Positions 1 through 64,000 are shown, counted from the stretch's first letter. The stretch: DNA of 64,000 bases from an uncultured virus (IMG/VR IMGVR_UViG_3300006674_000076) (IMGVR_UViG_3300006674_000076:1-64000); one strand, 5' to 3'. The notes: generated by a model not told the origin, from the letters alone. Translations and numbers: made by a program.

Positions 1-1
1 T

Positions 2-244
2 TGTGGAGGGGATGTTCTTAACACTGTTGAACACTATGTTCCTTATCAAAACATATGGTATTCCGATATTCCAATGATAACTCCAAGAGGTTATAGCTTT
101 TGTTCGGGCGTTGTAAATAATAAAATATACGTTGCAGGTGGTGCTGGTCAAGGTAATACAGGTTACTATAATAGCACTGAAGAATATGCCCCATCAACTA
201 TAACTGGTTTAGATTCCCTTATTGCTTATTTGGTTATAAAATAA
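2..244 (+). CDS. Kelch-repeat (beta-propeller) tail-associated protein, 3' fragment
   Basis: Manual translation CGGDVLNTVEHYVPYQNIW..PMITPRGY..VNNKIYVAGG..STEEYAP..VIK* shows Kelch GG/Y/W/PR pattern; start lies outside window. Confidence 0.75.
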   Translation, partial: CGGDVLNTVEHYVPYQNIWYSDIPMITPRGYSFCSGVVNNKIYVAGGAGQGNTGYYNSTEEYAPSTITGLDSLIAYLVIK

Positions 245-273
245 TTAACAAAAATTATTGGAGGTGCCAATGT

Positions 274-753
274 ATGATTAAACAACACTTACTAAATCTT
301 GCGGCAGAAAAAAATATTGTAGTTTCTGCTGCAGAAATTGACACATTTATAACAAATTTGCCAAACTACGAAGATGTAATTCGCTCTAATATTACTGTTG
401 AGTTATGGGATGGTGTTTCACCAGTTGGAAATGTAGCTGCTGATGAAATAAAGTCAAGACCAGACTTTCCAAAAACAGAAAATGCAAAGGCTTTTTTCAT
501 AAAAATAGATGGCATACCTTTATATTTTCAGTATCATACAATATTAGGTTATGAGCCGATAACTGAAGAAAACTATTTGACAGAAGCTGAAAAAATAATA
601 AAGCAATATGTTGAGACGAGAGTAATTGAACAGGCAACAAAACTTTTTCTTGAACAGTTTGGTAATCGCACACAGGCTAATACAGTTAATCAACAGCAGC
701 TTGATATAATGGCAGCTTTAACTGATATTGCAATAAAACTGGGGGTGTTATAA
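274..753 (+). CDS. hypothetical protein (tail/lysis junction)
   Basis: 159 aa ORF, GGAGGT RBS. Confidence 0.6.
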   Translation: MIKQHLLNLAAEKNIVVSAAEIDTFITNLPNYEDVIRSNITVELWDGVSPVGNVAADEIKSRPDFPKTENAKAFFIKIDGIPLYFQYHTILGYEPITEENYLTEAEKIIKQYVETRVIEQATKLFLEQFGNRTQANTVNQQQLDIMAALTDIAIKLGVL

Positions 754-906
754 ATGACATACTGGGTAAATATTTACTATCAGCTAATCATAAACGGCAG
801 GAAAACTCTTAACGATGTACCAATGAGCATTAGAGCAGACGTTGAAGCTAAGCTTATTGCAGATGGGNACACAATCAACGCAGACGGCACAGTAACCAAG
901 GGGTAG
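754..906 (+). CDS. small CD1375-like phage protein (50 aa, not in ORF track)
   Basis: MTYWVNIYYQLIINGRKTLNDVPMSIRADVEAKL; IY..LI..G.KT..DVP..R..V pattern; starts directly after previous stop. Confidence 0.6.
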   Translation: MTYWVNIYYQLIINGRKTLNDVPMSIRADVEAKLIADGXTINADGTVTKG

Positions 907-948
907 CCACGCTGCCCTTTTCAATAGAGCTGTGAAAGAAGGTGCAGG

Positions 949-1203
949 ATGCCAGGGGCAGAAATAGCTCAATACGGAGTAGCAATTTTCGCCATAGCAA
1001 TGCTTGGCTACGTATTCGTAAAGATTATCGGCGGTACGAAGCCCGTAGATAACAGCAAAGAACTAGCAGCTGTAATAGAAAATAATACTAAAGCATTAAA
1101 GGAACTAATGACCGTGCTGCATCAGATAGAAGTACAGATGGCACGACAAGAAACCAAGATAGACGAGCTACTTGCAAGGACGAGAGATGAGAAAGATGAC
1201 TGA
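949..1203 (+). CDS. holin-like membrane protein (N-terminal TM plus coiled coil)
   Basis: Hydrophobic N-terminus, first gene of lysis cassette; positional counterpart of 37205..37510. Confidence 0.6.
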   Translation: MPGAEIAQYGVAIFAIAMLGYVFVKIIGGTKPVDNSKELAAVIENNTKALKELMTVLHQIEVQMARQETKIDELLARTRDEKDD

Positions 1204-1417
1204 AGAGCGTTTTTCTAAGAAAGTAGTGCGATGGGTGATATTGCTAAATGCCTTGTTTGTGGTGGCGGTATTGTTTTTATATTGGCACACAGGGTCAGAG
1301 CCAGCAACGNTAATAGTGAGTTGGTTTGCTTTTACCACTGGTGANTTGTGGGCATTNGCNGGAATAAAGAGAGAAGAGACAAAGAAGGGAGGGAGCGACG
1401 ATGAAGGTNTGCATTGA
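1196..1417 (+). CDS. small two-TM lysis-cassette membrane protein
   Basis: RFSKKVV..WHTGSEP..WFAFTTGELW shared with 37503..37718. Confidence 0.65.
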   Translation: MTEERFSKKVVRWVILLNALFVVAVLFLYWHTGSEPATXIVSWFAFTTGXLWAXXGIKREETKKGGSDDEGXH

Positions 1418-2150
1418 TCCTGGNCATGGTGGAAGCCAGCCAGGGGCAGTAGGGTATTTCGGGACGAAAGAAAAGGATATNACGCTTCAGGTTGCTTTAC
1501 AGCTTAGGGATGTACTTAAAAATGCGGGTGTGGATGTGGTAATGACAAGGGAGAGCGATAAAGATGTGAGAACAGCCAAGCAATCAAATGAGCTACAAGC
1601 AAGGTGTGATGTAGCGAATAACTCCAAGGCCGATGTTTTCATTTCAATACATTGTAATGCATCAAATGACTCGTCGGCTCATGGGACGGAGACGTGGTAC
1701 TACCCGAAAGACGCTAAAAGCAAGACTTTAGCACAGTTTATCCAGACGGAGTTGGTGAAACAAATAGGTCTAAAGGACAGAGGAGTTAAACAAGGCAATT
1801 ATTACGTAACACGTTATACAAAAATGCCAGCCGTGTTGGTGGAGTTGGCGTTTATCAGTAATCCCGAGGAGGAGGTATTATTACGAAATAAGGCGTTCCA
1901 AAGGAAGTGTGCTGTAGGGGTAGCTAATGGTGTACTTCGTTTTCTAGGAATGCCTTTAGTAAAGGAGGTGCAAGGCATGAAAGACGTACCGCAGACACAT
2001 TGGGCGTACAAGTATATAAAAGAGTTGTACGATTTGGGAATTGTGCAGGGAGATGAAAAAGGATATTTCTATCCAGACAAGCCAGCTACAAAAGCGGAAG
2101 TTGCTACTATGATAGCCAAGCTATACGAAAAGATAAAAGGAGGGAAGTAG
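1401..2150 (+). CDS. endolysin: N-acetylmuramoyl-L-alanine amidase (Amidase_3) with C-terminal SLH domain
   Basis: IDPxHGG, EKD, SIH, LVELAFISNP motifs; KDVPQTHWAY..GIVQG..FYPDKPATKAEVA is SLH-like. Confidence 0.92.
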   Translation: MKXCIDPXHGGSQPGAVGYFGTKEKDXTLQVALQLRDVLKNAGVDVVMTRESDKDVRTAKQSNELQARCDVANNSKADVFISIHCNASNDSSAHGTETWYYPKDAKSKTLAQFIQTELVKQIGLKDRGVKQGNYYVTRYTKMPAVLVELAFISNPEEEVLLRNKAFQRKCAVGVANGVLRFLGMPLVKEVQGMKDVPQTHWAYKYIKELYDLGIVQGDEKGYFYPDKPATKAEVATMIAKLYEKIKGGK

Positions 2151-2151
2151 A

Positions 2152-2508
2152 ATGCATGACTTATTTTTACAGTTACTTTACGATATCATCGCTATCCTTG
2201 TCCCGATACTTGTCGGCTATGCGATAGCATGGTTGCAAAAAAGGATAGGTACAGAGAAGTTGGAAGCGGTAGTGCGAGAGCTTGCTACCAAGCGAGAATT
2301 GGCACGAGTTGCAGTATTGTTTGTCCAGCAAGCGTACAAAGATTTGGGCGGAGCAGAGAAGTATGACAAGGCGGCAGAGTGGTTGTCCGATGCGGCAGGC
2401 AAAATAGGTATACAATTGTCCGAAGAAGAGGTAAAGGGACTTATTGAAGCCGCATTGAAGGAGCTGAAGACGGAGCTTGGCGAAGCATGGGATGAGTTAG
2501 CGAATTAG
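2152..2508 (+). CDS. phage holin, LL-H-like
   Basis: N-terminal TM, G.EK...A..L..IEAA pattern, follows endolysin. Confidence 0.75.
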   Translation: MHDLFLQLLYDIIAILVPILVGYAIAWLQKRIGTEKLEAVVRELATKRELARVAVLFVQQAYKDLGGAEKYDKAAEWLSDAAGKIGIQLSEEEVKGLIEAALKELKTELGEAWDELAN

Positions 2509-2660: not shown

Positions 2661-2915
2661 ATGGCAAAGATTGTGTTAGACGTGGCGAAGTTGAGGATGT
2701 GGAGGGCTTATCGTGGATTGACAAAGCACAAGATGTCGCAGTTGATGGGGTATGCTGGCGATGGATATTACTACATTGAAAGCGGCAAGGTAGTTCCATC
2801 GTTAGCGAGGATTAATCAAATTTGTGAGATTTTAGACATCAGTCCGTTGGACATTCTCGTNGTTGAGGATGAGAAGAAGGAGGGAGAGCATGAAAACATT
2901 GAGGAGGTTCGTTGA
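2661..2915 (+). CDS. XRE/Cro-like helix-turn-helix regulator
   Basis: LRMWRAYRGLT..MSQLMG..YYYIESGKVVPSLARINQICEILDIS; strong RBS. Confidence 0.85.
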   Translation: MAKIVLDVAKLRMWRAYRGLTKHKMSQLMGYAGDGYYYIESGKVVPSLARINQICEILDISPLDILXVEDEKKEGEHENIEEVR

Positions 2916-3120
2916 CTTTGTGAATGATGAAGAGACAAGTACCTTGACAGTGCATGTGATGTGTTGTACAAACATTGGAGCGTACGTAAAGNTGTTGGAT
3001 GATTTAGGGTTTACGTTCATTTACATTGACGGAGACTCATGCGAGGCAGAGCTTGAAGGCGAGTATGCAAAAGTGTTTGAAGTAATGCGGATGCTTGAGC
3101 AGGAAGGGTTTACGTGGTAG
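2890..3120 (+). CDS. hypothetical protein
   Basis: GGAGGGAG RBS before ATG 2890. Confidence 0.6.
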   Translation: MKTLRRFVDFVNDEETSTLTVHVMCCTNIGAYVKXLDDLGFTFIYIDGDSCEAELEGEYAKVFEVMRMLEQEGFTW

Positions 3121-4073
3121 CCATGGCGTTACGAGTAAGTAGTGCAGGAGCATGTCCGAGAAGGATAGAACTTGAGGCATGGGGTGTAGAAGGGCTTCCA
3201 TTGTGGGAAGGTTCAGAGCGTGCTTTTGCTGAAGGTAACATGCATGAGCAGTCCATATTGGAGTGGGCATGCGAGAACTTACCAAATGGGCCGTATGTGT
3301 TACATAGCCAGCAGAAGGAAGTTTCTATTTTTTACCACGATAAAGAACTACTTGTGGGGCATATTGATGGATTAGCTACCAATAATGAAGGTGTAACAGT
3401 ATTGCTTGAGGCAAAGGCTTTAGCAAAGAGAGCATTTACAGAGATACGAGAAAAAGGATTGAGAGAAGCACATCCGCAGTATTTCACGCAGGTGCAGTTG
3501 TACTTATATGCGTTGGGGCTGGAAAAAGGGTATTTGATAGCACGGAATAAGGATACTCCAAAGACGAGGTTCTGGGATCACCACATTGAAGAAGTCGTTT
3601 ACGATGCCGAGTTTGTAGAGGCCGAGCTAAAGCGGTTGGAGGAGTTGGCAATTAAGATTGAACAAGGCGTTGAGATTGAGCCACCGTATAATCCCGAGGA
3701 TAATTGGCAGTGCAGACAGCCATATTGTCCGTATACAGAAAAGTGCTTCCCAGAGTATTATAAAAACTCCAGACAGCCTAAAATAGCAAAAGTGGATATG
3801 GAATTATCAGCGTTGGTTGAACAGTACGTTGAGCTTGGCGAAGAGATATCCGAAATGCAAGAGATACGAGAAGGGATAAAGGAGCAAATCATGGAGCGTG
3901 TAGGAAGCGACCCTGTGATAGCTGGCGAGTATGTGGTATATACCAAGGAGCGCATAAGTGAGACAATAGATACCAAGAAGGTGCGGGAGGTAGTACCAGC
4001 TGAAGTGCTTCAGGGTTTAATGAAGGTTTCAAAGTCGCAGGTATTGTATGTTAAGCCTGTGGCTGAAGAATAA
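3114..4073 (+). CDS. PD-(D/E)XK exonuclease (Cas4/RecB/YqaJ-like), partner of Bet
   Basis: CPR, GHIDG, LEAK, QVQLY, C..PYCPY...C; adjacent to Bet. Confidence 0.8.
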   Translation: MVAMALRVSSAGACPRRIELEAWGVEGLPLWEGSERAFAEGNMHEQSILEWACENLPNGPYVLHSQQKEVSIFYHDKELLVGHIDGLATNNEGVTVLLEAKALAKRAFTEIREKGLREAHPQYFTQVQLYLYALGLEKGYLIARNKDTPKTRFWDHHIEEVVYDAEFVEAELKRLEELAIKIEQGVEIEPPYNPEDNWQCRQPYCPYTEKCFPEYYKNSRQPKIAKVDMELSALVEQYVELGEEISEMQEIREGIKEQIMERVGSDPVIAGEYVVYTKERISETIDTKKVREVVPAEVLQGLMKVSKSQVLYVKPVAEE

Positions 4074-4087
4074 AAGGAGGGATAACG

Positions 4088-4990
4088 ATGGACAGTATTG
4101 TAAAGTATAAGTCTGAAAGTGGTGAGGAAGTTTCTTTAAGTGCAGACATTATCAAGCGTTATTTGGTATCAGGCGACCCGAGTAAGGTTGCCGACCAAGA
4201 AGTAATGATGTTCTTAAAGCTGTGCCAGTATCAGAAGCTTAATCCGTTCCTTAACGAGGCCTACCTTGTGAAGTTTGGCAATGAGCCAGCCCAGATAATA
4301 GTTGGTAAAGATGTGTTCATGAGGCGGTTGTCAAACAGCCCGCTGGTAGAAGGTTACCAAGCAGGTATTATCGTTCGCAAGAAAGGAACAGATGAGGTTC
4401 AGTATCGTAATGGGACATTTTATATTCCGGGTGAGGAGCAGTTGCTTGGAGGGTGGAGCAAGATTTGGCGCAAAGGATGGAAAGAGCCAGTAGAGCATTC
4501 TGTTAGTTTGCATGAGTATATCAAGCTGAATGCAAATAATCAGCCGCAGGCTGGGTGGAAGAAGGCAGCAACCCAAATCAGAAAAGTAGCACTAGTGCAG
4601 AATGCCCGAGAAGTTGTTCCCGATTTGAGACAGCTTTACATCAGTGAAGAGATGCAGGTCGATGAGGAGCAGTTGCAAAATGCACAAGTAGAGTTCACAA
4701 TCCACGATGCCGAGGAAGAGGTACAAGAAGAGACGCAGGAAGTAGAATATGCAAGCGATAATGAGTTTATGTCAGATCCACCAATAACAGTGAAGCAAGT
4801 AAAGAGGTTATACGCCATAGCCCACGGAGATACGAAGCTGATAAATGACATAATTGAAGAGTACGGATACGAGAAGTTGCAGGACATTAGGAGAGGAGAT
4901 TACGAGGCGATTTGCAATGCTGTACAAAGTGCGGTGTTGGAACAAGAAGAGCAACTATCAGATACCATTGAACAAGTAGAAGAGCAATAA
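4088..4990 (+). CDS. bet: phage single-strand annealing recombinase, Bet family
   Basis: DQEVMMFLKLCQYQKLNPFLNEAYLVKF, LLGGW, IRKVALVQ. Confidence 0.88.
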   Translation: MDSIVKYKSESGEEVSLSADIIKRYLVSGDPSKVADQEVMMFLKLCQYQKLNPFLNEAYLVKFGNEPAQIIVGKDVFMRRLSNSPLVEGYQAGIIVRKKGTDEVQYRNGTFYIPGEEQLLGGWSKIWRKGWKEPVEHSVSLHEYIKLNANNQPQAGWKKAATQIRKVALVQNAREVVPDLRQLYISEEMQVDEEQLQNAQVEFTIHDAEEEVQEETQEVEYASDNEFMSDPPITVKQVKRLYAIAHGDTKLINDIIEEYGYEKLQDIRRGDYEAICNAVQSAVLEQEEQLSDTIEQVEEQ

Positions 4991-5009
4991 CAGTTAGCAA
5001 AGTCCCGAG

Positions 5010-5051
5010 TGGGAGCAAGTGTAGGTTTTACCAAAGCTTGCTCCCATTTTT
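5010..5051 (+). terminator. intrinsic terminator after bet
   Basis: TGGGAGCAAG..CTTGCTCCCA plus TTTTT. Confidence 0.75.
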
Positions 5052-5142
5052 ATTTCATTTTCAAAGTGTCAGTAAAGTGTCTCAAGGGTAAAACAGTGCA
5101 AATGTAGGAACTACCAAATCCCACTGTATTTTATACAGTTTG

Positions 5143-5258
5143 AAAGTGTCGGTTTTTGTTAACACCTATTTAATACAAAACATGTTGACATTATATCCTA
5201 TGTGGTAATATATATATAGAAAAAGAAAGAAGGAGGGAACGAAGATGAGAACAGAAAG
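5143..5258 (+). repeat. promoter-RBS-start cassette, copy 1 (copy 2 at 6592-6708)
   Basis: AAAGTGTC..GTTAACACCTATTTAATAC..GTTGACATTATATC..TGGTAATAT..AAGAAAGAAGGAGGG..AAGATGAG shared. Confidence 0.85.
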
Positions 5259-5880
5259 AACAGAAAGAACAGAAAGAACAGAAAGAACAGAAGGAGGGAG
5301 AACAATGAGACAGGAAAGACAGGAAGCAAGAGAGTTTGTGCAAGAGAGGTTCAACACCAGCAGTGTAAGGTTACTCGGAAGGTTAATCGCTGAAGCAATC
5401 GCCAAGACAGAACTTAAGGTAGCCAGAAAGGTGTACGGTAATGAGTATGAGGAATTAGCTATTCAGGTAATCGAAGAGATGCTGGAAAATGTCAGCGAAG
5501 CTGCTTACGAGAAGTTAGCCAAAATAAGCAAGGATTACGATAAGGCAATCGAAAACTTCTTGGTTGAAAAGTACCTTGAAAATGGTAACCCAAGCCAGTA
5601 TGCAGTAGAGATGTGGGTAAAGGATACAGCCATAACAAGCGCAATGTACGATGCCTATAGGAAAGCAAACGATGAGTTCTGGAATACGTTTAACGTAAAG
5701 AGATGGTTATACAATCACGGTAGGGATTACGAGGAAAGGTTAGCCCTTGAGGGCATGCTGTTTGCAGTGTTTGATAGCTTAAACAAAGAATTGTTGAACG
5801 CCATAGGTGATATGGAGGATCAGTTAGCGCAAGCCCGCAGAGATGTGGGCTTTTACGTGAAGGAGGAGGCAGGGCAGTAG
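5245..5880 (+). CDS. hypothetical early protein, family I (alternative start 5305)
   Basis: Two RBS/ATG pairs; SEAAYEKL motif resembles 6695 and 7635 ORFs. Confidence 0.65.
   Translation: MRTERTERTERTERTEGGRTMRQERQEAREFVQERFNTSSVRLLGRLIAEAIAKTELKVARKVYGNEYEELAIQVIEEMLENVSEAAYEKLAKISKDYDKAIENFLVEKYLENGNPSQYAVEMWVKDTAITSAMYDAYRKANDEFWNTFNVKRWLYNHGRDYEERLALEGMLFAVFDSLNKELLNAIGDMEDQLAQARRDVGFYVKEEAGQ
5248..5292 (+). repeat. in-frame 9-bp tandem repeat (AGAACAGAA)x5
   Basis: Read directly; encodes RTE x5. Confidence 0.95.
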
Positions 5881-5907
5881 CCCTGCCTTCCCTTTATGGT
5901 AAGGGTG

Positions 5908-5935
5908 TTGACATCCATGCAAAATATGATAATAT
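5908..5935 (+). promoter_or_regulatory. sigA-type promoter
   Basis: TTGACA-N16-TAATAT with TG extension, just after hairpin GGCAGGGC/GCCCTGCC. Confidence 0.6.
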
Positions 5936-5969
5936 GCTATATAGAAGGAACAAACAGGAGGGATGCAAG

Positions 5970-6593
5970 ATGAAGAAGGTCGAAAGGACAGAAAGAGGTA
6001 TAAAGGTGAGGTTAGCGCATTATACCGATAACGGCGGGGATTGGGTCGCTGAGATAGTGGATTTTCACCCTACATTCAAGTTCAACCGTCAATTCCTAAA
6101 TGCCGAGAAAGATTGGAGTTCATCAGGTCGGACAGGCTGGAGTTACTTTGAGCTGGTAGAAGGGCGCGTATACGAGGTAAATGAGCCGTACCGTGGCCGT
6201 TGGTTTATTCAGGTGGTAAATGGTGAGATAGTGGAGCTTACAAAAGAGGACGTAGAAGAATACCTATACCAGAAAAACGAAAACCCAGAAGAAGAATACA
6301 AACCCATAGTAGTTGACACTGCAGATGAAGTGTATGAAGCTGATACCGATGGAACGATGCAGAAGCTTGAGCCAGAGAAGAAGGTCATTGATAAAGCGCA
6401 TTACAAGGTTGCTTCCAGAGGCACATATATAATTGTAACGCCAATATGGGATGGTGGCTGGAAGATATACCTTTATGTAGGTGGAGCTGCGAGATTTCAG
6501 CCGAAGAGTGTCAGAGTAGAAGAGAAGCCAATTATAGCAGGCAAGCATTTATCAGATGTGCTTGCCGATTATCCCGAGTTGAGAGGACAATAA
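5970..6593 (+). CDS. hypothetical early protein, family II
   Basis: Paralog of 8119..8745 (LAHYT, DWVAEI, EKDWS.SG.TGWSY, YEVNEPY.GRWF, GGAARF.PK). Confidence 0.75.
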   Translation: MKKVERTERGIKVRLAHYTDNGGDWVAEIVDFHPTFKFNRQFLNAEKDWSSSGRTGWSYFELVEGRVYEVNEPYRGRWFIQVVNGEIVELTKEDVEEYLYQKNENPEEEYKPIVVDTADEVYEADTDGTMQKLEPEKKVIDKAHYKVASRGTYIIVTPIWDGGWKIYLYVGGAARFQPKSVRVEEKPIIAGKHLSDVLADYPELRGQ

Positions 6594-6708
6594 AGTGTCA
6601 GTATTAGTTAACACCTATTTAATACCAGAGTGGTTGACATTATATCGCATATGGTAATATAGTATATAGAAGAAGAAAGAAGGAGGGAGTAAAGATGAGG
6701 ACAGGAAG
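6592..6708 (+). repeat. promoter-RBS-start cassette, copy 2
   Basis: Direct repeat of 5143-5258; TTGACA at 6634. Confidence 0.85.
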
Positions 6709-7231
6709 AGAGAACTTGAAGGAGTTAGTAGCTATCGAGATGGGTAAGGGTATCAGCCGTGGATTTGCGAGGGCTGAAGGGTGGTTAACATCCAATATTG
6801 ACCACTATGCTGAAGGTTCGTTTGTAGGGTTCATCCTTGGTATGCATTTAATAGACGTGTTAAGCGAGACAGCTTTTAAAGCCCTTGAAGGTGTGCTGGA
6901 CGATTTGGTAGACGAGCTTGAGATGTTCTGTTTAGAGCGTGAGAAAGAAAANGGCAAGGAATATGTGTACTACCATGANGCNATGAGAATTGCAAGAGAT
7001 ATAGCAGGAGCGGTGAGAGAAGAGTTCATGAGCCAGCGTCAAAAGTTGAACGAGATTGAGGACTTGATATATTACGATTGGACATTCGCTAACATGGGTC
7101 TAGAAACAACGGGAAAAGCCATAAGGCACTTTGTATGCCGAGAGTTGGACACAATACTTTACATGAAGGTTTATACCGAGTTCACTGATGCGGTGGATAG
7201 GGTAATCAGAAGGCTGGAGGGTGGGCATTAG
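6695..7231 (+). CDS. hypothetical early protein, family I
   Basis: Strong RBS, own promoter, SETAFKAL motif. Confidence 0.65.
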   Translation: MRTGRENLKELVAIEMGKGISRGFARAEGWLTSNIDHYAEGSFVGFILGMHLIDVLSETAFKALEGVLDDLVDELEMFCLEREKEXGKEYVYYHXXMRIARDIAGAVREEFMSQRQKLNEIEDLIYYDWTFANMGLETTGKAIRHFVCRELDTILYMKVYTEFTDAVDRVIRRLEGGH

Positions 7232-7259
7232 CCCACCTTCCAGTATGGAGGTGATTGCA

Positions 7260-7580
7260 ATGAGGCAGGAAGTGTACACCATAGAAGTAACAGAGAAGGA
7301 GCAGTTGGCTGGGTGGAATCATGCAGACTTGGGTGAGGATGGAGACTTTTTCGCAGAGACAGTATGTATTGACGTAGGCGACATGGACAATGATGATGAT
7401 ATCATAAGCGTTGAGTTGTTCGGCGTGTTTGAAGAAGTAGACGGGGAGCGTAGCGAGGCAAAGATGCTTGTTGACATTGAGATAGGCCAGTTTAAGGCGT
7501 GGCAAGTGCGTGCGGGTGAGTTGTCCGTAAGTGATATTGTAAATGCGGCTTGGGAGACATGGGGCTTATACATTTACTAA
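7260..7580 (+). CDS. acidic hypothetical early protein, family III
   Basis: Paralog of 8760..9077 and 49113..49475 (WNHADLGEDGDF, DDDII). Confidence 0.75.
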   Translation: MRQEVYTIEVTEKEQLAGWNHADLGEDGDFFAETVCIDVGDMDNDDDIISVELFGVFEEVDGERSEAKMLVDIEIGQFKAWQVRAGELSVSDIVNAAWETWGLYIY

Positions 7581-56807: not shown

Positions 56808-58027
56808 TGCCAAAAGCCAAAATACAGTTCATTCCACATGCTGGACAGCTTAAAGCTTGGAATTCTGAGAAGCGAATTGTTGCTGTAATAGCTGGTTCAG
56901 GCGGTGGGAAGTCCCTATTGGGCTCATTTTGGCTGTTAAGAGAGATACAGAAAGACCCAAGAGCCACTTTTATGGCTGTAGCACCGACATATTCAATGCT
57001 AATTCGTAATTTGATGCCTTATATTCAGAATTTGCTTGAACCTTACGGTGCTTATTATAGAACTAATGAAAAAGTATGGTATTTACCAGAAGGCGGAAGA
57101 GTAATAATGGGCTCTGCTGATAACCCATTAAGTTTAGAAGGAGCACACGTTAGAGCTGCTTGGTTAGACGAAGCTGGACAGATGGACGCTTTAGTTTGGG
57201 ACGTTGTTAGAAGAAGAACTGCTTTTCATAGAGGTAGAATTTTGATTACAACTACTCCATACTTTTGGAACTGGATAAAGACTGAGGTATACGATAAATG
57301 GGCTTCAGGAGAAGATGAAGATATTGAAGTAATAACCTTTGACTCAAAGACTAATCCTTACTTCCCTATTGAAGAGTTTGAAAGGCTAAGAGCTACGATG
57401 CCAGATTGGAAGTTTAAGATGTTCTACGAAGCACAGTGGACGAGACCTTCAGGCTTAGTTTACGCTGACTTCAGAGAAGATATCAATTTGGTGCAGCCAT
57501 TTGATATTCCAAGCGATTGGCGTAGATACATCGGTGTAGACTTCGGGTTTAATAACCCATGTGCAGCAGTTTGGGTTGCAGTTGACAAAGACACAGATAC
57601 TTGGTATGTTTACAGAGAATACAAGAAGAAAGGTAAAACGGCACAGGAATTTGCAACTGAAATATCCAATATATCTTATGATGAGTTTATTTACAAAATA
57701 TACGGAGACCCATCATCTCCACAATCTTTGAAAGAATTACGTAAATACTTCCAAGGAGCAGTATCACCAGCAGACAACAAGGTATTAGATGGCATCGGAG
57801 CTGTAACTGTGCGAATTAGAAATGGCAGTTTGAAGATATTCGCTAATTTAGATGGTTTATTAGATGAGTTAAAGTCATATAGATGGAAGATGAGTAACGA
57901 TACAATGTATGATGAGCCAGTTAAAGAAAACGACCACTTGCTGGACGCACTAAGATATGTTGTTTATTCAACGTATAAGAGTAACAACATAAGAAAGATA
58001 CCTGTTCCTAAACCGATGGGGTGGTGA
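56807..58027 (+). CDS. terL: terminase large subunit
   Basis: Same motifs as 17405..18625. Confidence 0.93.
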   Translation: MPKAKIQFIPHAGQLKAWNSEKRIVAVIAGSGGGKSLLGSFWLLREIQKDPRATFMAVAPTYSMLIRNLMPYIQNLLEPYGAYYRTNEKVWYLPEGGRVIMGSADNPLSLEGAHVRAAWLDEAGQMDALVWDVVRRRTAFHRGRILITTTPYFWNWIKTEVYDKWASGEDEDIEVITFDSKTNPYFPIEEFERLRATMPDWKFKMFYEAQWTRPSGLVYADFREDINLVQPFDIPSDWRRYIGVDFGFNNPCAAVWVAVDKDTDTWYVYREYKKKGKTAQEFATEISNISYDEFIYKIYGDPSSPQSLKELRKYFQGAVSPADNKVLDGIGAVTVRIRNGSLKIFANLDGLLDELKSYRWKMSNDTMYDEPVKENDHLLDALRYVVYSTYKSNNIRKIPVPKPMGW

Positions 58028-58028: not shown

Positions 58029-59459
58029 ATGTTAACAAGTTTAGATGTGATATCACAAGGTAAGTCTTTTCCACCTTTTACAGAACTGCCAAGGCTTGAT
58101 AGATACAGGACTAATAAATTTCTATTTGATAATAAGCCACAAGCAGTATGGGTAGATTGGGCACGTAGATTAGAGGGCGACCAAGGTTTAGGCATGATGG
58201 TAGCTCTGAACTATCCACAACGCTTGTCTAAGCTGTGGGCTGATATGCTATTTGGAGAAACACCAAGGATAACCGTTTACCCAGAAACGCAAGAGAATGT
58301 AACCGATATGACAAAGATGTTGCTTGTTTCAGACTTTTGGAACGTGTCTTATCAGGTTGCATTAGATGTTTCCAGATATGGCACTGGCATTTACAAGTTA
58401 TGGTTAGACGGTGTTCCAAGGTTCCAAGCCATTCCTCCTCATATGTGGTTCCCAATAATTAATCCAAGCAATATGCATGAAGTTGTAGCACATGTTATAG
58501 CTTGGTTGTCTAAAGATACTGATAATAGCGGAGACAATACGTTGTTGATGGAAATACATACTGCTGGCAAGATTGAATACAGAGCGTATAAAATGCACAG
58601 TGGCATTATCGGAGATGACATTACCGATTTAGTTTACGAAAACAGAGAAGAAGAGACTGGAGTTGATATACCGCTTATATTCACAGTGCATAACATAAAC
58701 GCTTCAGATAGTCCCATCGGGCAAGACGATTACGAGGCTATAGAACCTATTTTGTATGAACTTAATCAGAGGTTATCACAAATTGCAAGGATTCTAAATA
58801 AGCATTCAGACCCACATATGGCAGGACCAGAGACAGCCTTGGAGCAAGATGAAATGGGAAGATATGTATTTAGAGGTGGTGCTAAATACTTCCCATTAGA
58901 AGCTGGAGACCCGATACCACAGTATATAACTTGGGACGGTAAATTACAAGCTGCATTTGACGAGATTAAATTCTTAGTAGAACAGTTGTTTGTAATATCT
59001 GAGGTATCTCCAGTGCTGTTTGGCATGACTGAAGGTTCGCTTAGAACTGGTGCTGGACTACGTAAAGAGTTGATAGCTCCAATATCTAAATCCAACAGAT
59101 TGAGAATGCGTTTTGACCCAGTGATTAGAAATATGATACTAACTGCTGGTGCGTTGTGGAACAAAGATTGGAAAGAGATAAACGTTAGCTGGCAGGAAGG
59201 GTTACCAATTAACGACCTTGAACAAGCTCAGATTTACACGATGCTATATAAGACTGGATTGGTATCTCAGGAGACTGCTGTTAAAAAGCTGTTCTCTTTG
59301 GATAGCCAAACGCTAAACGAAGAACTATCTAAGATAAACCAATCAGCAACGGTTAAAAAGGGCGATGCTGCAACGTTGATTGATAACAAATACGGCGTAG
59401 CAGCGGAAAGTGCTCTAAATGCAGTGCAAGGTGACGGGACGTTAAACACGGAAATTTAA
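58029..59459 (+). CDS. portal protein
   Basis: Homolog of 18627..20066. Confidence 0.85.
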   Translation: MLTSLDVISQGKSFPPFTELPRLDRYRTNKFLFDNKPQAVWVDWARRLEGDQGLGMMVALNYPQRLSKLWADMLFGETPRITVYPETQENVTDMTKMLLVSDFWNVSYQVALDVSRYGTGIYKLWLDGVPRFQAIPPHMWFPIINPSNMHEVVAHVIAWLSKDTDNSGDNTLLMEIHTAGKIEYRAYKMHSGIIGDDITDLVYENREEETGVDIPLIFTVHNINASDSPIGQDDYEAIEPILYELNQRLSQIARILNKHSDPHMAGPETALEQDEMGRYVFRGGAKYFPLEAGDPIPQYITWDGKLQAAFDEIKFLVEQLFVISEVSPVLFGMTEGSLRTGAGLRKELIAPISKSNRLRMRFDPVIRNMILTAGALWNKDWKEINVSWQEGLPINDLEQAQIYTMLYKTGLVSQETAVKKLFSLDSQTLNEELSKINQSATVKKGDAATLIDNKYGVAAESALNAVQGDGTLNTEI

Positions 59460-59460
59460 C

Positions 59461-59583
59461 ATGCCACGCAGGAATAGAAGGAAGCACAAAGAACCAGAAG
59501 ATTATTACGAAAACATCAAGTTGAAGAGAAAAGACAAGTTTTATCGTAAAAAGAGGTGGAAGAAAAATGGCAGAAAGAGTTAG
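59461..59583 (+). CDS. 40-aa highly basic peptide (not in ORF track)
   Basis: MPRRNRRKHKEPEDYYENIKLKRKDKFYRKKRWKKNGRKS. Confidence 0.7.
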   Translation: MPRRNRRKHKEPEDYYENIKLKRKDKFYRKKRWKKNGRKS

Positions 59584-59878
59584 CCATAAGCCTTGGGGCA
59601 GATTCTCAGAAAGTGATTATACATTGGAGCAGTTAGCTCGTGCTTCTTTAATACACATGCAGGAGCCACCCAAAACCAAGGCTGATTGCAAATTACCAAT
59701 TAGAGAACCAGATGGAACTTTGAATGCAAACGGCATAGTAGCAGCTGCGATAAGAATACATCAAACAGATGCACCAATGGAAAAGAAACGCAAAGCAGCA
59801 AGGAAACTTGTATCTCTATATAGAAACGTTCTTAATAGAGAACCACCAGACAGCTTGAAAAGATTAGCTGAAATGTAA
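59567..59878 (+). CDS. conserved head-module protein
   Basis: Homolog of 20164..20475. Confidence 0.75.
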   Translation: MAERVSHKPWGRFSESDYTLEQLARASLIHMQEPPKTKADCKLPIREPDGTLNANGIVAAAIRIHQTDAPMEKKRKAARKLVSLYRNVLNREPPDSLKRLAEM

Positions 59879-59952
59879 GTAATGCATGTGGTATAATAAT
59901 TATTAGTAAAAATTACGCTGACAACGAGCGGTAAATCGTTGGAAGGAGGTTT

Positions 59953-60552
59953 ATGATGGCAGACGAAGTTAAACAAGTCCAAAGCAGTAATGAGGTTAAC
60001 GAAACTCAAGCAGTTAGTGAACCTATACAAGAGCAAGAAACTCCTAAGGTATTTACACAAGAGGAGTTAGAAAAGATTATTGCAGAAAGGCTTGAAAGAG
60101 AAAGAAAGAAATACAAAGATTACGACGAATTAAAGAAAGTTGCAGAAGAGTATAAGAAGATGAAAGAAGCACAGATGACAGAAGAAGAAAAATTACAGAG
60201 CAAGTTAGCTGAATTAGAAGCGGCTGTGCTTGAGAAAGAGTTGGAGGTGCAGGAAGCCATGATTGAAAAAACAAAGATGAAAGTAGCGATGGAAATGGGC
60301 TTACCTGCTGACGCTTTAGATTTCATCTCTGGTTCTACAGAGGAAGAAATCAGAGAAGCGGCTGAGAAGTTTAAGAATTTACTTGGAGGAAATTACTCCA
60401 AGGTTGGTAAGCCTTCAGCTCCTGCAACAGCACAGTCTGGGTCGAAGGTATGGACACGTAGCGAAATTGAAAACATGTCACGAGAAGAACTAATACAGCA
60501 CAGAGAAGAGATTAAACAAGCCATGAAAGAAGGCAGAATAATTGACAAATAA
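59953..60552 (+). CDS. capsid scaffolding protein
   Basis: Homolog of 20548..21144. Confidence 0.8.
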   Translation: MMADEVKQVQSSNEVNETQAVSEPIQEQETPKVFTQEELEKIIAERLERERKKYKDYDELKKVAEEYKKMKEAQMTEEEKLQSKLAELEAAVLEKELEVQEAMIEKTKMKVAMEMGLPADALDFISGSTEEEIREAAEKFKNLLGGNYSKVGKPSAPATAQSGSKVWTRSEIENMSREELIQHREEIKQAMKEGRIIDK

Positions 60553-60569
60553 AGAGGTGAAATATAAAT

Positions 60570-61550
60570 ATGGCTAATGAAATTTTTAGTAAAGATACAA
60601 GTGGAACCTTTACTAAAATTGTGCCCGGCGAAATAGTTCCCACTTTTTGGAGCGCAACATTATTAGAGGACCTTAAGAAAGAGCTGGTGTTTGGTTCTTT
60701 AACCAACGCACAGTATATTGGTGAAGTAAAATACGGTCAAACGTTAAAGATATTCAACGTATCTGGCGTAACAATTACAAATTATAGTCCAGTAGATGGA
60801 TTTGGCAACGCATGGACTCCAAGCAGAGCTAAAGCTGAAGAAGTAACTACATTAACAATTGATAATGCAAAGGCATTTCAGTTCTTCATAGAGGACCTTG
60901 AAAATAGAGCAGTTCTCGTAGACTTAATGTCTGCGATAATGAGAGAAACCACTTATAAATTAAGAGATGTTGTAGACCAGTATATCGCAGGGCTATTTGA
61001 AGCTGGAGCTACTCCATTCCTGACTGATACAGGAGGAGAGATTGCGGCACAGCTAACCAATACTTACACTTTCTACGACCTATTGGTTGACGTTGACACT
61101 TTAATGAATAAAAACAACGTTCCAAGGAATGGTCGTTGGATTGTCGTTCCACCAGAATTGAGAGCTCTACTGCTTAAGGACAATAGGTTTGTAGCCAACG
61201 CTTCTTCTCCACAAGCTTATGTATCTTTGCTGAATGGTGAAGTTGGTCAGGCGGCTGGATTTACTGTTAAGATGAGCAACAACGTTCCTACGCTTAGTGG
61301 AACATTAGATGGTTCTTATCGTTTCTACGCTGGAACTAACGATGCGTTGGCATTTGCATATGATGTAGAGAAGATTGAAACATACAGACCTGAGAACAGA
61401 TTTGCAGATGCCGTTAAAGGATTGTTTGTATACGGAGCTAAGGTAATCAGACCAGTTTGCGTTTACAAAGTTGCAGTTAAACTACCTGTTCCAGAACCAG
61501 AACAACCAGGACAAGGTAATACTGGTGGTAATGGTGGTAATAGTTCATAA
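60570..61550 (+). CDS. major capsid protein with Pro/Gly/Asn C-terminal extension
   Basis: Homolog of 21162..22088; hairpin CGGGAGCTGTC/GACAGCTCCCG follows. Confidence 0.85.
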   Translation: MANEIFSKDTSGTFTKIVPGEIVPTFWSATLLEDLKKELVFGSLTNAQYIGEVKYGQTLKIFNVSGVTITNYSPVDGFGNAWTPSRAKAEEVTTLTIDNAKAFQFFIEDLENRAVLVDLMSAIMRETTYKLRDVVDQYIAGLFEAGATPFLTDTGGEIAAQLTNTYTFYDLLVDVDTLMNKNNVPRNGRWIVVPPELRALLLKDNRFVANASSPQAYVSLLNGEVGQAAGFTVKMSNNVPTLSGTLDGSYRFYAGTNDALAFAYDVEKIETYRPENRFADAVKGLFVYGAKVIRPVCVYKVAVKLPVPEPEQPGQGNTGGNGGNSS

Positions 61551-61615
61551 TTACGTTTATCACATTATTAGCGGGAGCTGTCATGCGACAGCTCCCGAGA
61601 TAAATGGAGGTTAAA

Positions 61616-61846
61616 ATGGCAGTATTGTATGATAAGAAAAACAAGCATTACGTTTATGTAGAGGACGAAGAAGTTGAAACACTGATAAAAGCTTATGATT
61701 GGCTGGAGGTGGTCAGATGGCACTCACAATTGGTACCAACAGTTACGTCGACGTCGGATACGCAGACGAATACTTCAGAGCAAGAGACATCGACGGAACA
61801 GGAATCTGGAAAGACCTCACGAAAGAACAAAAAGAAGCAATATTAG
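61616..61846 (+). CDS. small protein overlapping adaptor gene
   Basis: Homolog of 22151..22375. Confidence 0.7.
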   Translation: MAVLYDKKNKHYVYVEDEEVETLIKAYDWLEVVRWHSQLVPTVTSTSDTQTNTSEQETSTEQESGKTSRKNKKKQY

Positions 61847-62292
61847 TTCAAGCTGCATCTTTGCTTGATACTTTAATTTATAAAGGTGCCAAGAAAGACC
61901 CTAATCAGCCAATGGCATTTCCAAGAGTTCTAATGATTAAACACGGAGTAGAATTTGCAGCTGAGCTTTTAGACACTGGCTCCATTTATGAGGCTATCGC
62001 ACAGTTATACCCACAAGAACCTTATATTTACAGGGTTGGAGATATAGAATACATTGACATTGGAACTCCAGAGATAATTAAGATGGCACAATGCGAACAG
62101 GCAAAGTATTTACTTGAAATGGCTAATGACCCGAGAATACAAGCTATTATGTCTGGAGTATCGTATGTAGCAGTAGGTTCAGTTAGAGAGGCATACAATA
62201 CTGATAGGGTTAGTGCTAAAACGGTGATAATTTCTCCTATGGCTAAGTCTTTAATAAAACCGTTAATCGCTGGAGCAGTTGGACAGATATGA
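61717..62292 (+). CDS. head-tail adaptor/connector
   Basis: Homolog of 22252..22827. Confidence 0.7.
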   Translation: MALTIGTNSYVDVGYADEYFRARDIDGTGIWKDLTKEQKEAILVQAASLLDTLIYKGAKKDPNQPMAFPRVLMIKHGVEFAAELLDTGSIYEAIAQLYPQEPYIYRVGDIEYIDIGTPEIIKMAQCEQAKYLLEMANDPRIQAIMSGVSYVAVGSVREAYNTDRVSAKTVIISPMAKSLIKPLIAGAVGQI

Positions 62293-62603
62293 GCATTGTA
62301 GACAAATACTTAACGCAGACAGCTTACGTGTTAGAGCAGTTAGGAACTAACAGATACGGTGAGTATGAAACTGTTAGTAAACCGATTAAGTGCAGGTTAG
62401 AGATGTCGCAAAGCTACTTGGGAGAGATAACCAGAGCTTTAATGATAACTGAATACCAAGCTAAAGCGTTAATGTTTTGTAAAGAACCAGTAACTCTCGG
62501 GCAAAAAGTAATGTATAAAGGTAATGAATACACAGCGATACAGGTTAATGAAATAATCAATCTCGACGGCTCTCTATCTCATTATGAGGTAATATTAGGG
62601 TGA
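62289..62603 (+). CDS. putative head-closure protein
   Basis: Nearly identical to 22824..23138. Confidence 0.6.
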   Translation: MSIVDKYLTQTAYVLEQLGTNRYGEYETVSKPIKCRLEMSQSYLGEITRALMITEYQAKALMFCKEPVTLGQKVMYKGNEYTAIQVNEIINLDGSLSHYEVILG

Positions 62604-63010
62604 GAAAAGTAAAGATAAAAATATCTAAGACTGACCCGTGGATTTCTAAAGCTGAAGAATACCAAGAAATACTTGAAGATGCTTTCATTAAAGACGGCGT
62701 AATCATTAACCTTAGAAAGAAAAGCGTTGATGCATTCTACTATGCTAAAGAAGTGCTTGCACCAGAAGATACTGGCAATTTAAGAAGCACGATGCAGTTG
62801 AGTGAAAGCTCATCTTCAGATAAGATTACTTTTACATTCTCGGTATCTGCGTTTGACTTTGACGAAGGAGTGGCTTACGGCAGATTACACGAATTAGTGC
62901 ATGATGGCGTTTATAGATATCACAAAGAAGGAACGATGAACCAATACATGCTTAGAGCAATTAATAAGAAATTTGGCACTAACTTTAAGCACTACACTTC
63001 AGCTTTCTAA
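62600..63010 (+). CDS. HK97 gp10-like neck protein
   Basis: Protein identical to 23135..23545. Confidence 0.7.
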   Translation: MRKVKIKISKTDPWISKAEEYQEILEDAFIKDGVIINLRKKSVDAFYYAKEVLAPEDTGNLRSTMQLSESSSSDKITFTFSVSAFDFDEGVAYGRLHELVHDGVYRYHKEGTMNQYMLRAINKKFGTNFKHYTSAF

Positions 63011-63025
63011 GAGAGGGAATGAGAT

Positions 63026-63415
63026 ATGTTAGCGGCAGAAACAGTGTATGACCTTGTAGCAGAAGCAATAAACGGAAGGTGTGAGCTGTTTGTCGGCACA
63101 CCACCTTTTGATTTAGATGACTTGGTAGCACTTTACGATACTGGTATTGGAGATGGAGCTGAAGTTAACGGTTCAACGATGGAAAAAGCAATCATCATGG
63201 TAGTTGTCCGTTCTAAAAGATATGCTGATGGCTCTGCCATAATTGAAGATATTTACAAGCATCTCAACGATGCAAACAAAGATGGGTATGAATACAAAGA
63301 TGGTGCATATATTATAATGATAAGAGCATCAAGACCTCCATCTTATGAAGGTTTAGATGCGAGGCAAAGGCACATATTTACGCAACAATTTAATGTAATG
63401 CGAGAGGTGAAATAA
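63026..63415 (+). CDS. putative tail terminator
   Basis: Nearly identical to 23561..23950. Confidence 0.65.
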   Translation: MLAAETVYDLVAEAINGRCELFVGTPPFDLDDLVALYDTGIGDGAEVNGSTMEKAIIMVVVRSKRYADGSAIIEDIYKHLNDANKDGYEYKDGAYIIMIRASRPPSYEGLDARQRHIFTQQFNVMREVK

Positions 63416-63418
63416 AGA

Positions 63419-63826
63419 ATGGCTATAAGCGGCGCATACGGAAAAATATACGTTAAACAAGGTGGAACCAATGTTAAAATCGCAGAGATGTCAAGGTGGA
63501 CCTTGAACTTGGACGTTAACGATGTGGACGTAACTAACTTCGATACTGAAGGTTGGGTAGAAAGACTGACCACATTCAAGGATTGGACTGCATCTTGTGA
63601 AGGGAACCTTGTCATTGGCGATGTCGGACAGATGGCTTTAATAGATGCTTACATAAACGGAGAACCAGTTACTATTGAGATGACAATTGGCAAGCCTTCT
63701 TCTCCACAATTGGTAATATCTGGCAAAGCGATGATGAGTTTAACATTAGAAGCATCTACAGACAGTCAGGCAACGTTCTCTGCTGACTTCAACGGCATGG
63801 GTGCGTTGACAATACATACTACATAG
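63419..63826 (+). CDS. major tail tube protein
   Basis: Homolog of 23954..24361. Confidence 0.8.
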   Translation: MAISGAYGKIYVKQGGTNVKIAEMSRWTLNLDVNDVDVTNFDTEGWVERLTTFKDWTASCEGNLVIGDVGQMALIDAYINGEPVTIEMTIGKPSSPQLVISGKAMMSLTLEASTDSQATFSADFNGMGALTIHTT

Positions 63827-63827
63827 C

Positions 63828-64000
63828 ATGATTACAGGTCTAATCGGTAGTGTTTGGTGTCTAAGCAAAATAGAAGATTTGACAAAACCGATAGACCGTG
63901 TTAAGGAGAGCCTGCCATTTTGTGGTGGGCTCTCCAATTGGCATTTTGAAATGATAATGAGTGAAGCTTTGGTTGATGGCTCTAAAAGTGTTACACCAGT
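63828..64000 (+). CDS. tail protein, 5' fragment
   Basis: DNA matches start of 24366..24758; cut by window edge. Confidence 0.7.
   Translation, partial: MITGLIGSVWCLSKIEDLTKPIDRVKESLPFCGGLSNWHFEMIMSEALVDGSKSVTP

Follow-up and report, generated by a model that had tools for sequence, protein, structure and literature searches.

Modular (mosaic) evolution is familiar in tailed phages such as the lambdoid phages and the dairy siphophages, and is reportedly the subject of Botstein's module theory. The locus described here resembles these phages in that non-homologous modules occupy one slot between conserved linkers (the holin gene on one side, a PAPS-reductase gene and terS on the other), and in that, across contigs and samples, the same modules accompany one or the other of two structural lineages, but it represents an uncultivated group from anaerobic digesters and no integrase was found. 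One of its two early modules recalls the lambda O/P module, since its initiator gene contains iterons and a gene for a DnaC-like AAA+ loader comes after it, although the initiator, whose function is predicted, is DnaD/PHROG-270-like and shows no sequence similarity to lambda O that could be detected. The order of the parts, module A to the tail end of B and then module B to the tail end of A, is that of plasmid or phage cointegrates (heterodimers), from which the locus differs in its open record, a third lysis type, and uneven contig depths. Contigs that repeat a genome are also described in IMG/VR, where the CheckV paper, which treats them as 'potential concatemers', calls them 'probably artifacts of metagenomic assembly' (Nayfach et al., 2021; PMC8116208), and a study of wastewater phages reports the same (PMC10747093). 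Like the contigs of the CheckV paper, the present one is metagenomic, linear, without host DNA, and far longer than its unit genome (1.93 laps of a 39.4-kb period); unlike them, its laps are sibling strains (78–95% identical) with non-homologous early modules, and not copies.

The window, by which we mean the whole stretch of 64,000 nucleotides analyzed here, is the first part of an IMG/VR virus record that is linear and 75,921 bp long (IMGVR_UViG_3300006674_000076). Along the record, the order lysis, early module, PAPS, terS, head, and tail repeats, and the full path runs through lysis0, module A, head1, a shared tail block, tail1a, tail-end1, lysis1, module B, head2, the shared block, tail2, and lysis2 (Table 1), so that lap 1 has A at its start and lysis1 at its end and lap 2 has B at its start and lysis2 at its end. 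The two terS ORFs are offset by exactly 39,402 bp, as the sequence-only reading had noted, and the record thus goes round a siphophage map about 1.9 times, the unit length resting on this period and on comparison with a sibling record, G001. The terS copies are 100% identical in amino acid sequence and the terL copies 87%. In self-BLAST, 15851–22060 matches 55256–61471 at 78.6% identity and 22141–29930 matches 61606–69434 at 94.6%, with exact blocks of 60–410 bp common to both laps at 16.8–17.8 and 22.8–29.8 kb; those in the terS/terL region measure 80–260 bp and those in the shared block up to 410 bp. Lap 2 runs on to position 75921 and ends with lysis cassette 2 (74860–75919), giving three non-identical cassettes in the record, where the same reading had counted the two inside the window. 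Its other structural claims hold: there is a second complete set of head and tail genes, and no tyrosine or serine recombinase (PF00589, PF00239) was hit at E<=1 across 75.9 kb. Nor were host genes seen among the ORFs scanned, or att-like flanks found; the units abut directly, holin to early genes.

Table 1. Features of the window, with positions counted from its first nucleotide.
Feature	Position	Strand	Remarks
Tail-end ORFs of 'lap 0'	1..1203	+	ORF 949–1203 common to siblings with lysis0 then module A
Lysis cassette 0	1401..2508	+	Amidase_3+SLH endolysin 1401–2150, holin 2152–2508
Module A (early/replication)	2661..15766	+	profile matches
HTH	2661–2915	+	module A
Cas4-domain exonuclease	3114–4073	+	module A
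RecT	4088–4990	+	module A
DnaD/O-like initiator	9347–10390	+	module A; PHROG 270 at 6.6e-34; DnaD_N at 1.7e-4 (below Pfam cut-off)
Three 23-bp direct repeats (iterons)	9832..9908	+	inside initiator ORF; putative origin of module A
DnaC-like loader	12256–13095	+	module A; IstB_IS21 at 2.6e-17, PHROG 50 at 2.5e-37
Metallophos	13322–14218	+	module A
PDDEXK_15 resolvase-like	14215–14541	+	module A
D12 Dam MTase	14813–15766	+	module A
PAPS-reductase-like gene, copy 1	15838..16821	+	81% aa identity to copy 2; right border of module slot
terS and terL, lap 1	16845..18625	+	terS 16845–17405; terL 17405–18625
Head genes, lap 1	18627..22088	+	SPP1-type portal, scaffold, major capsid protein; 73–91% aa identity to lap 2
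Shared block	22141..29930	+	adaptor, major tail protein, tape measure 25528–28086, distal tail
Lap-1-specific tail genes (tail1a)	29931..32886	+	present in one sibling record (G004), with module B upstream
Tail-fibre region	32887..37718	+	mosaic breakpoints 32887, about 33900, 34872/34901, 35698
Lysis cassette 1	37702..38801	+	endolysin 37702–38454, holin 38478–38801
Module B	38827..55261	mixed	profile matches
RecT	38827–39918	-	module B
Amidase_3	39939–40553	-	module B
Cas4/PDDEXK_1 nuclease	41251–42159		module B
DnaA-box cluster	42162..42248	+	5 boxes, 3 perfect and 2 one-mismatch; putative DnaA-dependent origin of module B
N6_N4 MTase	42425–43201		module B
DnaN-like clamp	43492–44592		module B
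Metallophos	46611–47504	-	module B
SurE	51928–52647		module B
Tmk	52657–53232		module B
Split Dam	53225–54138		module B
RusA	54845–55261		module B
PAPS-reductase-like gene, terS, and terL, copy 2	55258..58027	+	terS 56247–56807, terL 56807–58027
Lap-2 head genes and start of second shared-block copy	58029..64000	+	within window

The ends of the record are alike only as siblings are: 1194–2382 matches 74653–75841 at 81% identity, and the cassette at the start is 81% identical to that at the contig end and 65% identical to cassette 1. No exact end repeat of 11–200 bp was found at the record ends, in agreement with the linear class given by IMG/VR, and relatives of the ORFs in 1–924 were found in none of the fetched loci. 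The laps being 78–95% identical and the early modules unlike, the mean 20-mer frequency of the record is 1.10, not clearly above the value of 1 beyond which a genome counts as repeated. The CheckV k-mer threshold, as we take it to be, would not flag this contig. The window has 27 single or double Ns, and 13 of the 21 testable sites fall on columns that are polymorphic among siblings, compared with 23% of neighboring columns (p=2e-4), which supports the earlier suggestion that the Ns reflect mixed templates.

Modules A and B are real alternatives in the same slot, with the holin on the left and the PAPS-reductase gene on the right, and the module swap proposed from the sequence alone therefore stands. 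By BLASTP, only four protein pairs are common to the two modules: RecT (51% identity), Metallophos (56%), Dam (68% and 49% for its halves), and one small ORF (33%). The functions that the modules had been said to share are indeed a Cas4-like nuclease, a Metallophos phosphoesterase, Dam, and a recombinase, the last being a RecT-family protein and not Bet. Profile matches and repeats bear out the account of module A as an iteron initiator with a DnaC-like loader and a PD-(D/E)XK resolvase, and the five-box cluster and gene calls agree with that of module B as a putative oriC-like site with DnaN and RusA. Module A would thus be an iteron-initiator and helicase-loader module, as predicted from an initiator with direct repeats followed by the AAA+ loader. 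Module B has a candidate DnaA-dependent origin beside replication genes, in which five DnaA boxes lie within 87 bp, 1.2 kb upstream of the DnaN-like gene; with what we assume to be the box consensus, 22 boxes were found window-wide compared with 19.3 expected, so that the total is not enriched and only the clustering is notable. The swap between siblings is real but ordinary phage mosaicism, that is, classical modular phage evolution, and involves no new principle.

The same blocks are put together differently in sibling contigs. We found 115 relatives of TerL in IMG/VR, and those at 83–99% identity, almost all from one metagenome, display many other A/B mosaics. A lysis0-type cassette precedes module A in four sibling records, and in two other metagenomes (L095 and L096) a cassette nearer to lysis2 (83%) than to lysis0 (77%) lies ahead of an A-like module. 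Lysis1 precedes module B in G001 and likewise in the more distant relatives L113 and L114, and single Logan contigs bridge endolysin1 to the RecT of module B in runs X2 and X3, from two other studies. Because siblings pair lysis0/2-type cassettes with A and lysis1 with B, neither lap of the record closes on itself. At the other border of the slot, RusA is followed by PAPS ahead of head genes in seven records, and Dam of module A is followed by PAPS in only one, which is of the other structural lineage. This second lineage (TerL about 50% identical) also has modules A and B in sibling contigs: A is paired with a lineage-2 terL in G011 (44,243 bp, from another metagenome), which holds a single copy of terL, of lysis, and of module A within roughly one lap, and B is paired with lineage-2 genes in L026 and L031, with head1-like genes in G004, and with head2-like genes in G001. 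The same modules therefore occur with other partners in independent genomes, though most sibling records come from one assembly, may themselves be chimeric, and do not make the junction census an independent one. The lap that does close for module B, of about 38.3 kb, is supplied by G001 (53,175 bp), which consists of head2-like genes, the shared block, tail2a-like genes, the segment 32887–33890, and then 35698–52648 (tail end, lysis1, and module B), before continuing into another structural lineage. No end repeats were found in the siblings and relatives checked, of which 15 records are classed as linear and one as a provirus.

Public runs were compared through Logan contigs against positions 20001–40000 only, a stretch that is present in 19 runs of 12 studies. 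Contigs of X1, X2, X3, and X20 leave the path of the record at 22288, 27249/27753, 32887, 33931, 34872/34901, and 35698, and these departure points are the breakpoints between G001 and the record, whose tail-fibre sequence tracks the abundant G001 haplotype from 35698 on. The run contigs, together with the exact inter-lap blocks, indicate that the assembly graph branches at the points where the path passes from one haplotype to another, and about four such segments stand in series along the record. Cover was uneven between runs: X2 and X3 have almost no contigs at 30.0–32.7 kb, depth in X3 is 0–2.9 at 20.0–22.0 kb, and X20 is thin along the whole stretch, but gaps of this kind prove nothing and are not counted as evidence. 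Roughly measured, depth in X1 is 390–471 at 35.7–40.0 kb, for contigs fitting with 0–3 differences, and 92–114 at the lap-1 head genes and 124 at tail1a; contig depth is no copy number, and this about four-fold difference along lap 1 could also be caused by segments shared between strains.

The 76-kb chain is quite probably a product of assembly, a walk through a braided ring of mosaic strains, and we infer that no single molecule has this order. The ring would be the circular, permuted map, about 38–39.5 kb long, of a headful-packaging siphophage with many mosaic strains in the sample. If an assembler, or a contig-merging step, uses each edge of the graph once, exact blocks common to the strains would keep its path from closing after one lap, and the path would continue for 1.9 laps, picking another variant each time. 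The sequence-only reading had left the choice between a natural cointegrate and an assembler passing through two circles by way of shared blocks; the evidence favors the walk, but the ring, with its three or more types of lysis and tail end and its second lineage, is more tangled than a pair of circles.

A physical hetero-concatemer or cointegrate, in which siblings in one cell recombined in shared blocks by means of RecT and exonuclease and the intracellular intermediate was then assembled, is an unlikely source of the record. A single crossover in a shared block between an A-circle and a B-circle would give exactly this order, which speaks against the walk, and since both modules have RecT and a nuclease, recombinants are plausible when siblings infect the same cell; both modules also have a junction resolvase. 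Many strains are present together in one sample, packaging from concatemers is suggested by the terminase and the SPP1-type portal, and the depth gaps could stem from a minor strain that shares segments with the major one. However, a heterodimer circle should close and the ends of the record differ, so that the chain would have to contain no fewer than three unlike units; contig depth, as a rough measure, varies about four-fold along lap 1; contigs from other studies join the same blocks differently; short-read graphs give this order without any such molecule; and a 76-kb molecule would presumably be unpackageable by a phage with a map of about 39 kb. That such hetero-concatemers exist in the digester, with co-infecting siblings recombining at the conserved linkers (terS and the tail block) and module shuffling caught in the act, seems to us quite doubtful.

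Far less probable than either are two readings that take the chain at face value. A tandem array of prophages (polylysogeny), carried on a chromosome or plasmid of a bacterium, would place related genomes head to tail, and the locus that is the nearest genome match, in a Peptococcaceae MAG, is prophage-like, but the missing recombinases, host genes, and att-like flanks, and the holin-to-early-gene joins that recur in one-lap sibling contigs, make this very improbable. Equally hard to credit is a true phage genome of about 76–88 kb whose structural genes were duplicated internally and then diverged. Completeness by CheckV is 86% for the 75.9-kb record and only 32–55% for siblings of 20–44 kb, figures that imply a reference length of about 80–88 kb; yet G011 has terL, lysis, and module A a single time each, the laps carry different replication modules with a full second set of head and tail genes, and at the mosaic breakpoints other runs have contigs that depart from the record. 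The reference used by CheckV could be a chain as well, and completeness was not usable as a measure of genome size.

To begin replication, A-type phages would use an iteron-binding DnaD/O-like initiator and a DnaC-like helicase loader of their own, and B-type phages would recruit host DnaA to the box cluster and supply their own sliding clamp. Both may use RecT and exonuclease for recombination-dependent synthesis of concatemers, which a junction resolvase (PD-(D/E)XK or RusA) would debranch and terS/terL would package. The host is likely a Bacillota bacterium with an S-layer, as suggested by the SLH endolysin and the Peptococcaceae locus. A terL scan of genome contigs returned only four distant loci, the best being that locus, at 48%; megablast of 15800–38500, 2400–15850, and 38450–55260 against the phage collection gave no match; and a RecT-B scan of metagenome contigs reached 68% at best, with no near relative from which a closed circle could be read. 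A CRISPR-like repeat, used to look for the host, had no match in the Peptococcaceae MAG; of 401 genomes sampled from that phylum, 25 have a member of its family and one (G185) has the exact repeat, but none of the latter's 16 examined spacers matches the phage sequence.

The main value of these observations concerns data quality. A public virus catalogue lists the record as a 76-kb genome that is 86% complete, and since its k-mer frequency is near 1, a chain of siblings probably passes the usual concatemer check; the reference lengths for these phages may be too high. For the phages themselves, the contigs document a widespread digester swarm in which structural lineages, at least two in number, trade two replication strategies and two resolvase types, and which offers a clean natural illustration of modular exchange.

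The contig (the full 75,921-bp record, 39% G+C, classed as linear in IMG/VR) runs through successive rounds, or laps, of one siphophage map of about 39 kb. Direct repeats spaced 39,393-39,465 bp apart pair 15.85-24.5 kb with 55.26-64.0 kb, and ORF coordinates place the two terS genes exactly 39,402 bp apart, the offset already reported from inspection of the sequence alone (hereafter, the sequence-only reading). The pattern named by that reading, a chain of sibling phage genomes, is real and well described, with the correction that the contig does not close: its start and end are siblings with 81% identity, and it carries no exact terminal repeat in the 11-200 bp range, so it is not the circle of a two-genome heterodimer. 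The two lysis cassettes counted earlier are present in the window, and a third lies at 74.65-75.92 kb of the contig. Megablast of 15800-38500, 2400-15850, and 38450-55260 against the phage collection gave no match.

Positions of repeats, modules, and other features along the contig
Feature	Coordinates	Counterpart	Detail
Self-alignment, whole contig	15851-22060	55256-61471	78.6%
Self-alignment, whole contig (shared block)	22141-29930	61606-69434	94.6%
Self-alignment, whole contig	32887-33617	71248-71977	75%
Contig start and end	1194-2382	74653-75841	
terS ORF	16845-17405	56247-56807	
Lysis cassettes in window	1401-2508	37702-38801	
Module A	2661-15766		lap 1
Promoter-like 70-nt blocks, module A	5143-5212	6592-6661	84% identical
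Paralogous ORFs, module A	5934-6593	8119-8745	PHROG 26647
Putative iterons	9832-9908		23 bp, three copies
Module B	38827-55261		lap 2
Second Amidase_3	39939-40553		minus strand
DnaA-box cluster	42162-42248		five boxes
T-tract arrays	47630-47770	49757-49885	type CTTTTTTA
TGTTAAGCC repeats	49885-49980		
AT-rich block	51238-51550		59-nt repeats, palindromes
SurE/Tmk genes	51928-53232		
Dam gene, module B	53225-54138		204 and 102 aa
Ns around module-B Dam	53253, 53764, 54114-54121, 54496		
Tail-fibre tandem repeat	35184-35465		141 nt, 2 copies
Tail-fibre tandem repeat	70457-71101		132 nt, ~5 copies
Tail-fibre tandem repeat	72748-73881		129 nt, ~9 copies
Spacer-like match	24476-24509		34 nt

By Pfam and PHROGs, which bore out the earlier gene calls, the structural genes are a siphophage set (terS, terL with Terminase_6N/6C, SPP1-type portal, scaffold, major capsid protein, adaptor, major tail protein, and an 852-aa tape measure), both cassettes of the window encode Amidase_3+SLH endolysins with LLH-type holins, and modules A and B occupy one slot from the holin to the PAPS-reductase gene, as had been proposed. 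Module A encodes an HTH protein, a Cas4-domain exonuclease, RecT, a DnaD/O-like initiator (PHROG 270, 6.6e-34), a DnaC-like loader, Metallophos, PDDEXK_15, and a D12 Dam methylase; module B encodes RecT and Metallophos on the minus strand, a second Amidase_3, a Cas4/PDDEXK_1 nuclease, an N6_N4 methylase, a DnaN-like clamp, SurE, Tmk, a Dam gene in two ORFs, and RusA. BLASTP finds in common only RecT (51%), Metallophos (56%), Dam (68% and 49%, two halves), and a small ORF (33%); with a Cas4-type nuclease in each module, the shared functions listed by the sequence-only reading stand, except that its "Bet" is a RecT-family protein. Its contrasts also hold: the putative resolvases are PDDEXK_15 in A and RusA in B, and an iteron initiator with a DnaC-like loader, the putative iterons lying inside the initiator gene, faces an oriC-like site with a DnaN-like clamp, where clustered DnaA boxes form a putative DnaA-dependent origin. 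Across the window such boxes are at chance level (22 found, 19.3 expected), so only their clustering counts. No initiator was detected in module B.

Each 70-nt block in module A holds a TTGACA ... TAATAT pair, and the blocks lie upstream of two ORFs. In module B, the T-tract arrays (about eight units each, 10-14-nt spacing, 2.1 kb apart), the TGTTAAGCC repeats beside them, and the AT-rich block all lie in gene-poor DNA and could be origin or regulatory sites. The second Amidase_3, without an SLH domain, adjoins RecT among the early genes, an odd location for a cell-wall amidase, and the adjacent genes for a SurE-like 5'-nucleotidase and thymidylate kinase, found in module B only, may serve nucleotide-pool or DNA-modification functions. 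Around the two overlapping Dam ORFs there are Ns, and siblings alternate there between A-like and B-like alleles; the split probably reflects a consensus drawn from mixed strains and not a true frameshift.

A terL scan of IMG/VR returned 115 relatives, those at 83-99% identity almost all from one metagenome, and the near relatives, aligned on the contig, prove to be mosaics in which A and B pieces follow one another in many orders. Among the contigs examined, module A stands behind a cassette of the type of lysis0 or lysis2 (the first and third cassettes) and module B behind lysis1 (the second). A join census gives lysis0 followed by module A in four records; in two from other metagenomes (L095 and L096) an A-like module is preceded by a cassette nearer lysis2 (83%) than lysis0 (77%), and in the siblings L094 and L097 a repeat region like that of a lap-2 tail segment, tail2b, lies ahead of lysis0 and module A. 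Lysis1 followed by module B occurs in the sibling record G001 and in the more distant L113 and L114. On the contig, lap 1 runs from A to lysis1 and lap 2 from B to lysis2, so that, given these pairings, neither lap is self-closing. The order in G001 (head2-like, 94.9%; shared block; tail2a-like, 96%; then 32887-33890, 34785-35542, and 35698-52648 at 95%, comprising tail end, lysis1, and module B) gives a closable module-B lap, which as a ring would measure about 38.3 kb; G001 continues past it for 16 kb of another structural lineage without nucleotide match to the contig, which makes it a second contig exceeding one lap. In the best module-A siblings (G013-G015), the structural parts upstream likewise lack any nucleotide match to the contig's structural genes, and a 44,243-bp record from another metagenome (G011) has a single copy each of terL (47% identity), lysis, and module A. 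In seven records the PAPS gene is immediately preceded by the RusA block of module B; in only one of the census is it preceded, as in lap 1, by the module-A Dam, and that record is of the other terL lineage.

A fraction of 0.59-0.82 of the 31-mers sampled from 33001-43000 is present in 19 public runs from 12 studies (2016-2024; anaerobic digesters, biogas, wastewater, sludge, and one freshwater sample). The B-type phage has a wide distribution and is well conserved. We compared Logan contigs of four runs (X1, the best match for this segment and possibly the source sample, X2, X3, and X20) with 20001-40000. Single contigs of X2 and X3 span endolysin1 to the module-B RecT, with a diverged 268-nt holin allele between, so that two further studies contain the lysis1-module B join. 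The four runs have contigs that depart from the contig path at 22288, 27249/27753, 32887, 33931, 34872/34901, and 35698, the points at which G001 diverges from it. In X1, contigs fitting with 0-3 differences have depths of 390-471 at 35.7-40.0 kb, 396 in the shared block, 92-114 on the lap-1 head genes (20.0-22.3 kb), and 124 on 31.5-32.3 kb; contig depth is not copy number, segments common to several strains sum over strains, and the sole inference drawn is that the lap-1-specific head and tail genes are absent from the majority of lysis1 and module B carriers.

Between the laps there are 41 exactly matching blocks of at least 60 bp, at 16.8-17.8 and 22.8-29.8 kb, where the sequence-only reading had placed them, and these provide the means for an assembler walk. 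The Ns, single or double (27 in the window, 46 in the whole contig), had been ascribed to mixed templates, in keeping with their enrichment on sibling-polymorphic columns: 13 of 21 N sites, each with at least two aligned siblings, are polymorphic, compared with 23% of neighbouring columns (Fisher p=2e-4). Several N clusters fall inside the tail-fibre tandem repeats. The TerS protein is 100% identical between laps, with a 260-nt exact block, and the flanking PAPS-reductase and TerL are at 81% and 87%, which points to terS as a site of recent exchange or as a hot spot of recombination.

The sequence-only reading had offered a cointegrate or an assembler walking two circles. Closure, joins, departing run contigs, exact blocks, and Ns favour the latter, and the chain is most likely an assembly walk, not one molecule. 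A physical hetero-concatemer of sibling phages is unlikely, even though RecT, a nuclease, and a junction resolvase are encoded by each module, the sample harbours many coexisting strains, and a single crossover joining an A-ring to a B-ring would give exactly the contig order; the sibling joins, moreover, come mostly from one assembly and are themselves possibly chimeric. However, with ends that fail to close, one molecule would need at least three unlike units, contigs from siblings and other studies give joins by which neither lap can be closed, and run contigs leave the path at mosaic breakpoints, with exact blocks of up to 410 bp allowing a walk. Tandem prophages are highly improbable; no tyrosine or serine recombinase was found at E<=1 in the 75.9-kb contig, consistent with the earlier report of no integrase. 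We give equally little credence to a true genome of 76-88 kb. CheckV completeness is 86% for the contig (75.9 kb), 75% for G001 (53 kb), and 32-57% for records of 20-44 kb, except one of 38.8 kb (G006) at 76%; most values imply a reference length near 80-88 kb, or double the terS period, and that reference may itself be a chain.

IMG/VR contigs with one genome repeated are deemed probable assembly artefacts in the CheckV paper (PMC8116208), and one wastewater study removed contigs built of concatemers of smaller phage genomes (PMC10747093). Our contig differs from those of the CheckV paper, in which the same genome recurs, in that its laps are siblings, and its mean 20-mer frequency is consequently only 1.10. 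It would presumably escape the CheckV k-mer test. In practical terms, chains of siblings probably slip past the usual check for concatemers and may distort genome-length references.

The SLH domain of the endolysins, together with the nearest prophage-like locus (terL 48%) being in a Peptococcaceae MAG, points to a Bacillota host with an S-layer. The only repressor candidate detected is one Cro/CI-type HTH. Separately, an X1 contig carries the spacer-like match between two copies of a 30-nt CRISPR-repeat-like sequence (loose ends 24475 and 24510), which looks like a host spacer against gene 24366-24758; the repeat family occurs in 25 of 401 sampled genomes of that MAG's phylum, exactly in one (G185), none of whose 16 spacers examined matches the phage. 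Family knowledge suggests a scheme for replication and packaging. In A-type phages, their own initiator would start replication on the iterons within its gene, with host helicase loaded by the DnaC-like protein; B-type phages would draw host DnaA to the clustered boxes and provide the clamp themselves. In both, RecT and the exonuclease would later drive recombination-dependent concatemer synthesis, the resolvase (PD-(D/E)XK or RusA) would clear branches, and terS/terL with the SPP1-type portal would package DNA, probably by headful. The module swap itself is genuine, recurs across several contigs and samples, and offers a textbook example of how phages evolve by modules.
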